A stretch of 64,000 nt of DNA from Escherichia coli (GCF_051903065.1 NZ_CP178438.1), one strand, 5' to 3'. Shown: positions 41,497-45,821, numbered from the stretch's first letter. Program-made: numbers and translations. The notes: a model not told the origin generated them from the letters alone.

Positions 41497-42855
41497 TTAA
41501 TTTCTTTGCGGCAACGTAATCCGGAACACATTATGCTTATTGAGATAGTGATACGTAGCACTTCCCCCATGTAATTCGGCAATCGCTTTGACTAAAGAAA
41601 GGCCTAGTCCCTGACCTACGGAATGACGCGAATTATCTCCCCGCCAAAATCTACGGAAGAGTTTTTCAGGCTCATTAATTTTCGTTCCAGGGCTGGCGAT
41701 ATCAATATTAAGATAGCTGTTGGTATCAAGAAAACTGGTTATATGAATACGCGATTTTTCTGGCGAATATCGAATAGCGTTAACAATAAGATTCGATAAC
41801 ATTCGTTGCAGTAAAATTTTATCCGCAAAGATTTGCTGATTGCACTCGACCTTAAAGCAAATCTCTTTCTCGTCTGAAAGATATTCAAGATAGTCCAACA
41901 AATTTTCGACTTCCTTATTGAGAGAAAGCGAGTCCAGTTTCACCAAAACATTGTTTTTATCTGCCCTGGCAAGAAACAGTATGTTCTCTGTTAACCGCGA
42001 AATATTTTCCAGTTCTTCAATGTTACCGGCAATTGTTTTTTGATATTCAGCGATACTTCTGGTTTGACTGAGCGTAACCTGATTCTGACCCAGTAATGCA
42101 TTAATTGGCGTTCTAAGTTCATGAGCGAGATCGTCAGCAAACTGACTTAGACGCTCAAAATCTTTGACTAAAGCATGATGCATTTTATTCAACGCCTGCC
42201 CAAGAGGTTTTAGTTCTCTCGGTAATGCGCTAACCTCAACAGGCTCCCGGCTATCGTTATAATTCAGCGCTTCCGTTACACCACTCAACTTTTTGATCTC
42301 TCGTAACCCCGTTCGGATTAACAGCGGACTTAATACTGAGCACAGTATAATGGCGACAATGCAAATTATAATGCTATTGATTTTATACTGTTCAAGCATG
42401 TTATGTCTGGCTGAAGCCAATTTAGCCACAGTAACCGTTAATGATGGCGAAACTTCATCAATATTAATTCGTAAAGCATCTATCTCTGTATCATTAATAA
42501 TGCTTCTGTAAATGCCAGCTGCGCTGATTGTCTCACTAGCAGGTATGTTATTTAACATGCCATCACTGACATTTGTCCGGTTAACAATTTTATTGATGCT
42601 ATCACCATGAATGATCAAGATATCCTGACTAACATCCATCATCCGGTTAAAGTACACAGGTAACGTATCTGGATTTACCCCATCAATTAACAACTGCTTG
42701 ATCTGTGCTGTCCGGTTAATGAGTGTTGTATCATCGCGCCATTTCAACTCACTTGCCAGGCCATTATAGAGAGTCCAGACAATTCCGGCGCCAGCAACAG
42801 ACAGCAGCAATATAAAAAGCAAGGTTAAACGGACGGTTATAGATAATCTTTTCAT
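41497..42855 (-). CDS. hprS: Two-component sensor histidine kinase (peroxide/copper-responsive HprS)
   Basis: 452-aa ORF with two transmembrane segments, HAMP, H-box (HELRTP) and ATPase domain; start overlaps the hprR stop. Confidence 0.85.
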   Translation of the reverse strand: MKRLSITVRLTLLFILLLSVAGAGIVWTLYNGLASELKWRDDTTLINRTAQIKQLLIDGVNPDTLPVYFNRMMDVSQDILIIHGDSINKIVNRTNVSDGMLNNIPASETISAAGIYRSIINDTEIDALRINIDEVSPSLTVTVAKLASARHNMLEQYKINSIIICIVAIILCSVLSPLLIRTGLREIKKLSGVTEALNYNDSREPVEVSALPRELKPLGQALNKMHHALVKDFERLSQFADDLAHELRTPINALLGQNQVTLSQTRSIAEYQKTIAGNIEELENISRLTENILFLARADKNNVLVKLDSLSLNKEVENLLDYLEYLSDEKEICFKVECNQQIFADKILLQRMLSNLIVNAIRYSPEKSRIHITSFLDTNSYLNIDIASPGTKINEPEKLFRRFWRGDNSRHSVGQGLGLSLVKAIAELHGGSATYHYLNKHNVFRITLPQRN

Positions 42856-43526
42856 TATTTTTTTACCGCTACGAATGAATAGCCCATCCCCCGGATTGTA
42901 GCGATTAGCTTCTCAGGAAAAGGATCATCAACTTTTGCGCGGAGCCTGCGAATGGCAACATCCACCGTATTGGTATCACTATCAAAGTTGATTCCCCAAA
43001 TTTCACTCGCAATAACCGTTCTGGGTATAATTTCGCCAGCTCTGGAGGCCAGTAGCCAAAGTAACTGAAACTCCTTGCGCGTCAGTGTAATACTGATATT
43101 GTCCCTGCTCACACTTTGACTAACAGAGTCCATTCTTAAGCCGCTGATTTCTAATGTTGAATTCAAAGCGTGATGTTGCCTTAATTGTGCCCGAACCCTT
43201 GCCAGCAACTCAGAAAATGAAAAAGGTTTTACCAGATAATCATTTGCTCCACTGTCCAGCCCTCTGACTCTGTCATCGACAGAATCCCTTGCAGTAAGGC
43301 AAATAACAGGGGTTTGCTTTGCCGTTCTTAACGTTTGTAAGATCTGCCAGCCATCCATACCCGGAAGCATAATATCCAGAATGATCAATGCATAATCATC
43401 CTTCAGCGCAAGATAAAGCCCATCTCTGCCATCAGAAACGGCATCAATGACATAACCCGCTTCGGAAAGCCCCTGCGTTACCCACTCCTGGGTCCTTTGA
43501 TTATCTTCAATAAGTAAAATCTTCAT
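42855..43526 (-). CDS. hprR: Two-component response regulator, OmpR family (HprR)
   Basis: ORF trimmed to MKILLIEDN (223 aa) with receiver and winged-helix domains. Confidence 0.85.
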   Translation of the reverse strand: MKILLIEDNQRTQEWVTQGLSEAGYVIDAVSDGRDGLYLALKDDYALIILDIMLPGMDGWQILQTLRTAKQTPVICLTARDSVDDRVRGLDSGANDYLVKPFSFSELLARVRAQLRQHHALNSTLEISGLRMDSVSQSVSRDNISITLTRKEFQLLWLLASRAGEIIPRTVIASEIWGINFDSDTNTVDVAIRRLRAKVDDPFPEKLIATIRGMGYSFVAVKK

Positions 43527-43658
43527 GAAAATAATATGCCATAAATCATATGTTATAGAAACAGCCTGGTTCATTACAAAATTGTAATGCTGCTGTAAGG
43601 TTACCCTGGACGCTTTTTCGCTATCCTCAAAACTCATTCACATGACAAGGATATAAAC

Positions 43659-44072
43659 ATGTTAAAGCGTTATTTAGTACTCTCGGTAGCAACGGCAGCA
43701 TTTTTATTACCTTCTTTGGTTAATGCCGCACAACAAAACATTCTTAGCGTGCACATTTTGAACCAGCAAACAGGAAAACCCGCTGCTGACGTGACAGTCA
43801 CTCTTGAAAAGAAGGCGGATAACGGCTGGTTACAACTTAATACCGCCAAAACAGATAAGGATGGACGAATTAAGGCACTGTGGCCCGAGCAAACTGCAAC
43901 TACGGGCGATTACCGTGTCGTATTTAAAACCGGGGACTATTTCAAGAAACAAAATCTTGAAAGTTTCTTCCCTGAGATCCCCGTTGAATTTCATATTAAT
44001 AAAGTGAACGAGCATTATCATGTGCCTTTATTACTTAGCCAATATGGGTATTCAACCTATCGTGGCAGTTAA
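43659..44072 (+). CDS. hiuH: 5-hydroxyisourate hydrolase (transthyretin-like periplasmic protein)
   Basis: 137-aa ORF with signal peptide and the C-terminal YRGS motif typical of HIU hydrolases. Confidence 0.85.
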
Positions 44073-44180
44073 TGCATAAATATGTAAAAGCAGATCTCTG
44101 CTACTGTTAGGGAGGACACTCCCTGACAGATTAACAGTAAACGGCTCTTGCTGGCTAACGACAAAAAAGTGTGATGGCTT

Positions 44181-45185
44181 ATGAAAAAGAATCAATTTTT
44201 AAAAGAATCAGATGTTACGGCCGAGTCGGTATTCTTTATGAAGCGCCGGCAGGTGTTAAAAGCACTGGGCATCAGTGCAGCTGCACTTTCTTTGCCTCAC
44301 GCTGCGCATGCCGATCTGCTTAGCTGGTTTAAAGGGAACGATCGCCCGCCCGCCCCCGCCGGAAAAGCGCTGGAGTTCAGCAAGCCTGCCGCCTGGCAAA
44401 ATAACCTGCCACTGACGCCAGCAGATAAAGTTTCGGGTTATAACAACTTCTATGAATTCGGGCTGGATAAAGCCGATCCCGCCGCTAATGCTGGTAGCCT
44501 GAAAACCGATCCATGGACACTGAAAATCAGCGGCGAAGTGGCAAAACCATTGACCCTCGATCATGATGACTTAACCCGTCGCTTCCCGCTGGAAGAGCGT
44601 ATTTATCGTATGCGCTGCGTGGAAGCGTGGTCGATGGTGGTGCCGTGGATTGGTTTTCCGCTGCACAAATTGCTGGCGCTTGCCGAACCTGCCAGCAATG
44701 CGAAGTATGTCGCTTTCGAAACAATTTATGCACCGGAACAGATGCCAGGCCAGCAGGACCGCTTTATCGGCGGTGGGCTGAAATATCCTTATGTCGAAGG
44801 ATTGCGTCTCGACGAAGCAATGCATCCGCTCACACTGATGACCGTAGGTGTTTATGGCAAGGCGTTACCGCCACAAAATGGCGCGACAGTGCGACTGATT
44901 GTGCCGTGGAAATATGGCTTTAAAGGGATTAAATCGATAGTCAGTATTAAGCTGACCCGCGAGCGTCCGCCAACCACCTGGAATCTGGCAGCGCCTGACG
45001 AATACGGTTTTTACGCCAACGTTAATCCGCATGTTGATCACCCGCGCTGGTCACAGGCTACCGAACGATTTATTGGTTCAGGCGGCATCCTCGATGTACA
45101 GCGCCAGCCAACGCTACTGTTTAATGGTTACGCCGACCAGGTGGCATCGCTGTATCGTGGCCTGGATTTGCGGGAGAATTTCTGA
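44181..45185 (+). CDS. msrP: Periplasmic methionine sulfoxide reductase, molybdopterin subunit
   Basis: 334-aa ORF with Tat signal (RRQVLKALG). Confidence 0.9.
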
Positions 45186-45821
45186 ATGCGTCTGACAGCA
45201 AAACAGGTGACATGGCTGAAAGTTTGCCTGCATCTTGCCGGATTGTTGCCGTTTCTCTGGCTGGTCTGGGCGATCAATCACGGTGGACTGGGTGCCGATC
45301 CGGTGAAAGATATTCAGCATTTTACCGGTCGCACTGCACTGAAATTTTTGCTGGCGACCTTGTTAATCACACCTCTGGCACGCTACGCAAAACAGCCGTT
45401 ATTGATACGCACACGCCGCCTGTTAGGCTTATGGTGCTTTGCCTGGGCGACACTGCATTTAACCAGTTACGCATTGCTGGAGCTGGGCGTGAATAATCTG
45501 GCGTTATTAGGCAAGGAGTTAATTACCCGGCCTTATTTAACGTTAGGAATTATCAGCTGGGTTATTTTGCTTGCTTTAGCGTTTACTTCAACCCAGGCGA
45601 TGCAGCGAAAACTCGGCAAGCACTGGCAACAGTTGCATAATTTCGTCTATCTTGTCGCGATCCTGACCCCAATACATTATCTGTGGTCAGTGAAGATTAT
45701 TTCACCGCAGCCGCTCATCTACGCTGGGCTGGCTGTACTGCTTTTAGCCTTACGGTATAAGAAGTTGCGTTCCCTTTTTAACCGGTTACGCAAGCAGGTT
45801 CACAACAAATTATCTGTATAA
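45186..45821 (+). CDS. msrQ: Methionine sulfoxide reductase haem-binding membrane subunit
   Basis: 211-aa membrane ORF immediately after msrP. Confidence 0.85.

Follow-up and report, generated by a model that had tools for sequence, protein, structure and literature searches.

In Escherichia coli K-12 MG1655, hprS, hprR, hiuH, msrP, and msrQ (b1968-b1972; formerly yedV-yedW and yedX-yedY-yedZ) form the closest known counterpart of the locus analyzed here, the hprRS/hiuH-msrPQ region of a 64,000-nucleotide stretch of E. coli DNA (NZ_CP178438.1; this whole stretch is referred to below as the window). In K-12, hiuH, msrP, and msrQ are co-transcribed, a reverse-transcription PCR (RT-PCR) product having been obtained across the hiuH-msrP spacer, and the three genes are induced by hypochlorous acid (HOCl) in a manner dependent on YedVW (HprSR) (bioRxiv 10.1101/2021.09.09.459708). 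Published work puts the induction of msrP by HOCl at about 60-fold, and this response is lost in a delta-hprRS strain. Mutagenesis of HprS showed that periplasmic Met72 and Met153 (with Met73) and the transmembrane Cys165 matter for activity, Met72 and Met153 being critical, and MsrP was found to exert negative feedback (bioRxiv 10.1101/2021.09.09.459708). In O157:H7, chromatin immunoprecipitation and electrophoretic mobility shift assay showed HprR to bind the hiuH promoter in vivo and in vitro. The site recognized by HprR (YedW) and CusR has been given as CATTACAAAATTGTAATG (PMC9302797 Fig. 1 legend; bioRxiv 10.1101/2021.09.09.459708 Fig. 1 legend). The two regulators have been reported to recognize this one box and to cross-regulate (PMC9302797). 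In response to copper, msrP is up about 4-fold in both the wild type and a delta-hprRS strain, with no increase in delta-cusRS; published fold-changes with copper are about 190 for hiuH, about 13 for msrP, and about 30 for msrQ.

The mechanism shown in the literature for K-12 and O157 begins with activation of the inner-membrane kinase HprS by reactive chlorine species, a step for which periplasmic Met72 and Met153 are critical. HprS phosphorylates HprR, which binds the palindromic box in a 132-bp spacer and switches on hiuH-msrP-msrQ as one transcript. MsrP, exported by the twin-arginine translocation (Tat) pathway, uses a molybdenum cofactor to reduce the methionine sulfoxide of periplasmic proteins; its electrons come via the heme protein MsrQ. 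MsrP has been proposed to reset HprS, thereby closing a negative feedback loop. Copper acts via CusS on CusR, which uses the same box, and the operon is copper-inducible in this way without HprSR. The CusSR/cusCFBA system belongs to the same “heavy metal” subfamilies as HprS and HprR (TIGR01386 and TIGR01387); however, the signal for HprSR is HOCl rather than copper or silver, and what it controls is a repair operon, not an efflux pump.

The region examined in this study is almost certainly a canonical, intact hprRS/hiuH-msrPQ locus that is expected, from its sequence, to work as it does in K-12. A first-pass annotation had described a compact oxidative-stress module in which the regulator and kinase genes overlap and divergent hiuH-msrP-msrQ genes follow at once, all five genes being intact, and each of these structural claims was borne out. 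On the minus strand lie hprS (41497-42855; sensor histidine kinase, 1359 nucleotides, 452 amino acids) and hprR (42855-43526; OmpR-family response regulator, 672 nucleotides, 223 amino acids), which overlap at 42855, where the minus strand reads ...AAAAAATAATGAAAAG... and the TAA stop and ATG start share one nucleotide (TAATG). Beyond the 132-bp divergent promoter region (43527-43658), the plus strand carries hiuH (43659-44072; periplasmic 5-hydroxyisourate hydrolase/transthyretin-like protein, 414 nucleotides, 137 amino acids), a 108-bp spacer within the tricistronic operon (44073-44180), msrP (44181-45185; molybdopterin-dependent periplasmic methionine sulfoxide reductase, 1005 nucleotides, 334 amino acids), and msrQ (45186-45821; membrane heme-binding electron-donor subunit, 636 nucleotides, 211 amino acids), the msrP stop ending at 45185 and the msrQ ATG starting at 45186. 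All five frames were recovered at the expected coordinates in the open reading frame listing of the window, have K-12 lengths, and contain no internal stops; hprS, hprR, hiuH, msrP, and msrQ are annotated at the same coordinates by RefSeq in NZ_AP045789.1, the chromosome of E. coli strain 23CRST027, which is 100% identical over the 5.5 kb around the locus.

Comparison with K-12 MG1655 revealed the same gene order, orientation, lengths, one-nucleotide hprR/hprS overlap, and abutting msrP and msrQ, the same 132-bp and 108-bp spacers (zero differences in each), the same HprR box, and the same flanking genes hchA and zinT; no frame is broken, and each protein differs by one to five amino acids. 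The wider neighborhood, fli – yed – hchA – hprRS – hiuH-msrPQ – zinT – yodB – serU – mtfA – asnT, is likewise that of K-12. Of 5426 complete E. coli genomes, 5420 contain the region and 5408 have no less than 80% of it, which is far beyond chance; the five-gene module is part of the E. coli core genome. The locus is thus a known, textbook one, with nothing unusual in this strain.

Gene identities were assigned using the curated cut-offs of NCBIfam equivalog and subfamily models together with Pfam domains. HprR covers the HprR equivalog NF008567 end to end (positions 1-223 of 223; 483.3 bits, cut-off 353), has Response_reg (PF00072) and winged-helix Trans_reg_C (PF00486) domains that both exceed their cut-offs, and contains Asp51, which we take to be the phospho-acceptor of the receiver domain. 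HprS scores 317.7 bits against the heavy-metal sensor-kinase subfamily TIGR01386 (cut-off 292.55) and has HAMP, HisKA, and HATPase_c domains by Pfam, the HAMP match (23.8 bits) lying slightly under its 25-bit cut-off. The H-box HELRTP is present at His245, presumably the phosphorylated residue, and the residues named in the mutagenesis work, Met72, Met73, Met100, Met153, and Cys165, are all retained, as they are in Escherichia albertii and in a plasmid-borne copy described below. Neither protein passed the corresponding Cus model (HprR against CusR model NF007346, 254.6 bits, cut-off 420; HprS against CusS model NF007345, 182.6 bits, cut-off 423), and the two-component system is therefore neither cusRS nor a cus paralog.

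The products of the divergent operon were assigned as readily. HiuH exceeds the cut-off of NF011610 (290.9 bits against 217), matches Pfam Transthyretin (PF00576; E = 4e-39), and has an N-terminal signal peptide (...LVNA/AQQ) and the C-terminal tetrapeptide YRGS, which we regard as a hallmark of the HiuH family; it also matches the solved E. coli transthyretin-like structures 2G2N and 2IGL (E about 1e-76). MsrP scores 502 bits against NF003767 (cut-off 207), contains an Oxidored_molyb domain (PF00174), and displays both the twin-arginine motif KRRQVLK and Cys146, assumed here to be the molybdenum ligand; its residues 45-334 align with the solved YedY structure (PDB 1XDQ; E = 3.5e-201) with three differences. 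MsrQ scores 239.5 bits against NF003831 (cut-off 130), contains a Ferric_reduct transmembrane domain (PF01794), and has His91, His151, and His164, which are presumably the heme-ligand histidines.

The divergent arrangement places a common spacer containing the regulator box between hprRS and hiuH-msrPQ. A motif search of 43527-43658, as advised by the first-pass annotation, located the published sequence CATTACAAAATTGTAATG as an exact match at 43572-43589, with 8-bp inverted arms and a central AA, its center lying upstream of both genes, at 78.5 bp from the hiuH ATG and 54.5 bp from that of hprR. It is the sole such site in the window even when up to three mismatches are allowed (0.08 expected). 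Of 5416 E. coli records, 3971 match the 132-bp spacer at 99% identity or more, and the spacer is about 97% conserved in the plasmid copy, which is itself about 90% identical overall. The box is matched at 18 of 18 positions in E. albertii, although its immediate flanks have diverged, and at 17 of 18 in the plasmid copies. A consensus promoter/terminator scan found no sigma-70-like site in the divergent spacer, which would fit an activator-dependent promoter without being evidence of one. Since every sequence element required by the published mechanism is present and unchanged, we infer that the module functions here as in K-12; identical non-coding sequence likewise points to co-transcription and HprR-dependent induction in the strain from which the window derives. 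The earlier description of the locus as a hypochlorite- and copper-responsive module controlled by HprRS needs to be divided in line with published work: the HOCl response runs through HprSR, whereas copper induction runs through CusSR at the same box.

The distribution of the box was also surveyed by scanning its exact 17-mer, CATTACAAAATTGTAAT, across 100,044 species genomes (298 Gb). At least 120 loci were found, mostly chance matches in AT-rich genomes (by our own estimate about 35 matches would be expected at random in 298 Gb), and the scan therefore gives no distribution of the module; E. albertii was the only genome among the matches listed with the five-gene arrangement at the box. Within these same matches, at least seven distant genomes (loci L034, L050, L057, L081, L099, L113, and L115) have the 17-mer upstream of an HprR/CusR-like regulator (43-57% identity), at a distance of about 150 bp or less, and about seven further genomes have it just past the cognate kinase gene (loci L005, L014, L046, L064, L073, L080, and L120). 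These box-bearing systems are found in distant Proteobacteria, Verrucomicrobia, Nitrospirae, and others, and a few OmpR-type regulators of Firmicutes, at about 30% identity, have the 17-mer 46-91 bp upstream (loci L011, L028, L039, and L107). The occurrence of the 17-mer beside HprR/CusR-like regulators in distant lineages fits a recognition site common to the subfamily.

Relatives of the module were also identified on plasmids. All five genes of the module, at about 86-90% DNA identity, are present on conjugative IncF plasmids of E. coli and Escherichia marmotae that are 82-170 kb in size (for example, CP099183.1 [L003] and NZ_CP102245.1 [L004], at 9001-13302 in both extracted loci). These copies have the five genes in the same arrangement and retain the box and, through compensatory changes, the spacer stem-loop considered below; they differ in having an MsrQ of 83% protein identity, an MsrP shorter by four N-terminal residues, and a GTG start for msrQ, and they adjoin ccdAB and a site-specific integrase gene. 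They are about 98% identical to one another, and the best E. coli chromosome falls only in the 90-95% band. As no E. coli chromosome is close to the plasmid copies, the donor was probably another Escherichia lineage; their proteins are closer to those of E. coli than to those of E. albertii. Nine plasmid places were counted among the 5426 E. coli genomes, and such strains have two copies of the module. No paper on a plasmid-borne module was found in a literature search on msrP, msrQ, and IncF, a weak search in that most subscription journals lay outside it. Matches of 97-99% identity in a plasmid collection were considered as possible evidence that the chromosomal allele is itself mobile; several of these records are 4.8-4.9 Mb in length and look like mislabeled chromosomes, and they were not counted as plasmid carriage.

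A more distant relative is found on a megaplasmid of Pantoea agglomerans (NZ_CP143420.1; locus L127, 2652-5727), where a diverged heavy-metal-type kinase and HprR lie opposite uraH (hydroxyisourate hydrolase, hiuH). The 78.5-bp spacing seen in E. coli recurs here, between the hydrolase ATG and the center of an upstream near-palindrome, AGATGACAATATGGTCATCT, whose half-sites read TGGTCAT as opposed to TTGTAAT in E. coli. This locus is without msrP and msrQ, and a gene for a small heme-binding protein follows the hydrolase gene. From the Pantoea arrangement, HprRS would seem to have been paired with hiuH first, msrPQ being a later addition to the operon.

The 108-bp hiuH-msrP spacer shows zero differences from K-12, and 3487 of 5416 E. 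coli records match it at 99% identity or more. Its predicted RNA fold (-38.4 kcal/mol, z = -4.9, with none of 200 shuffled sequences as stable) is dominated by an unannotated stem-loop with an 11-bp stem at 44104-44129, plus strand, CTGTTAGGGAG-GACA-CTCCCTGACAG, which occurs once in the window. One of its pairs is U.G, and the stem is therefore fully paired only in the mRNA sense, two mismatches being seen on the minus strand. In an alignment of four sequences (the window, E. albertii, and two IncF copies) the stem is paired in 44 of 44 cells; two pairs have changed from G-C to A-U on both sides and one from U.G to C-G, both double changes lying on the single plasmid branch. When two further E. 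coli alleles were included, the stem remained constant, the loop took six forms (GACA, GTGA, GAGA, AACT, GACG, and GGCT), and the downstream flank had indels. A stem kept paired through compensatory changes, with a variable loop, is a signature of selection on structure, for which the independent evidence is small. A palindromic DNA-binding site is disfavored as an explanation, given that full pairing is found only on the mRNA-sense strand and that what the double changes keep is the pairing, not the bases themselves. The stem has no U-tract after it and is therefore not a canonical intrinsic terminator; the consensus scan found no terminator after hiuH or msrQ and no promoter-like site within the spacer, the nearest listed one beginning at 44231, inside msrP. 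No Rfam match reaching the gathering score was obtained across 41200-46300 at E <= 1, where the only hit was a sub-threshold match of the repetitive extragenic palindromic (REP) type, and no paper describing the stem-loop was found in a literature search on hiuH, msrP, and terminators, again a weak one with most subscription journals outside it.

It is possible, and we put it forward tentatively, that the stem-loop is a functional RNA element, for instance one that affects processing or stability, or a leaky terminator derived from an ancestral stand-alone hiuH, and that it would set the HiuH:MsrPQ ratio from one HprR/CusR-activated promoter. The unequal induction of hiuH and msrPQ, taken with the absence of msrPQ in Pantoea, suggests an old hiuH 3' end that may now modulate read-through or stability. 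A rival reading, that the stem-loop is a terminator or processing site at which most hiuH transcripts end, largely uncoupling msrPQ from hiuH and leaving msrPQ levels to be set by read-through or by a separate start, is rather unlikely. The conservation of a strong stem-loop through compensatory changes, the published copper response (hiuH far above msrP and msrQ), and the Pantoea locus, from which hiuH looks to be the older partner and the hairpin could be a relic of its 3' end, can all be cited for it. However, the RT-PCR product across hiuH-msrP and the HprSR-dependence of msrP-lacZ induction by HOCl in published work argue against uncoupling, as do the missing U-tract and the missing promoter-like site, and it would at most modify, and not replace, the explanation of hiuH-msrP-msrQ as an operon switched on from the HprR/CusR box.

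The five genes differ from those of K-12 at 53 nucleotides and nine amino acids. Nucleotide identities and substitutions (K-12 residue first) are 98.6% for hprS (V170I; 99.8% amino acid identity), 98.4% for hprR (H137Q), 99.8% for hiuH (one nucleotide difference; S16L), 99.0% for msrP (T34A, T171A, P236T, Y284H, and A319D), and 98.1% for msrQ (A161T); in addition, the msrP stop is TGA in the window and TAA in K-12. When the substitutions were polarized with E. albertii and the plasmid-borne copy as outgroups, HprS I170, HprR Q137, and MsrP A34, H284, and D319 proved to be the outgroup states, and K-12 is therefore derived at these positions. The window lineage has just four private changes: MsrP T171A and P236T, HiuH S16L (in the signal peptide), and MsrQ A161T. 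As a separate observation, the 654 bp from 43527 to 44180 (promoter spacer, hiuH, and hiuH-msrP spacer) contain a single difference from K-12 and the flanking hprR, hprS, msrP, and msrQ differ by 1.0-1.9%, a pattern that could stem from stronger constraint or from a recombination tract.

No sequence feature of the locus opposes its assignment as canonical. Two considerations do weigh against it: the lineage-specific changes MsrP T171A and P236T, MsrQ A161T, and HiuH S16L may have effects, and the role of hiuH in the stress response is still debated in the literature (PMC9302797). Functional impairment of the locus in this lineage through those four private changes, that in MsrQ lying near His164, is nonetheless very unlikely. 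In its favor, five of the ten nucleotide differences of msrP from K-12 are non-synonymous, a proportion above that of the other four genes, and neither T171A nor P236T is present in E. albertii or the plasmid copy. Against this, three of the five MsrP differences are ancestral, with K-12 derived there, MsrP Cys146, the Tat motif, and all of the MsrQ histidines are kept, MsrP still scores more than twice its equivalog cut-off, and S16L falls within the hydrophobic core of the HiuH signal peptide. An intact locus functioning as in K-12 remains the favored account. That hprR might instead start at an ATG at 43637, the limit of the longest open frame for hprR, giving a protein of 260 amino acids, an intergenic region of about 21 bp, and a box inside coding sequence, was rejected as extremely unlikely, because the 223-amino-acid form spans the HprR equivalog in full and the extension does not survive in E. 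albertii or the plasmid copies, where single-nucleotide indels interrupt it; moreover, RefSeq and K-12 both place the start at 43526, and MKILLIEDN is a typical receiver-domain start.

Several features border the module. Directly after msrQ, on the minus strand at 45820-45885, lies a REP-like palindromic element, GCCGGATGTGGCGCGAGCGCCCTATCCGGCCTAC, which matches Rfam naRNA4 below threshold (33.7 bits, gathering score 59.5, E = 0.0026) and probably forms the 3' end of the operon transcript. The msrQ-zinT spacer (45822-46077), which includes this palindrome, contains 17 differences from K-12 in 256 bp (6.6%), far above the neighboring genes, and an AT-rich palindrome, TGTTACAATATAACA, which we take to resemble a Zur box, occurs in the same spacer just upstream of zinT. 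At the other end of the module, hchA and hprS converge on a G+C-rich hairpin (GCAGCCGCG ... CGTGGCTGC; 41426-41463) that has TTTTTT after it on the plus strand. This hairpin probably terminates hchA and possibly acts in both directions; the terminator scan missed it because its loop is 13 nucleotides long.

Further afield in the window, an intact OmpC-family porin gene (38758-39945, plus strand; 395 amino acids, annotated “porin OmpC”) occupies the position of yedS, which is a pseudogene (b4496) in K-12. Annotation of the identical record indicates a small degraded island at 13882-17297, between yedL and fliE, containing a frameshifted DUF5503 gene, a partial GNAT gene, a gene for a leucine-rich-repeat protein, and an integrase fragment. 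No pathogenicity island is inserted at asnT in the window; directly after that gene, a 7983-nucleotide gene on the plus strand (49638-57620) encodes a protein with immunoglobulin-like domains, a yeeJ-type inverse autotransporter adhesin.

The strain thus has the standard, complete periplasmic methionine sulfoxide repair system together with its regulator, which is of limited value as a finding in itself, its relevance lying in survival of neutrophil-derived hypochlorite and of copper; HprR-dependent gut colonization has been reported for O157:H7. If the stem-loop does act as proposed, the published disparity in induction between hiuH and msrPQ might be accounted for by a structural RNA within the operon. 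It is also a possibility that hypochlorite tolerance is made mobile by the IncF-borne module, acting as a cassette whose cross-talk with the chromosomal system would run through the common box, and plasmid carriage of such a sensor-plus-repair cassette would mean horizontal spread of oxidant tolerance.

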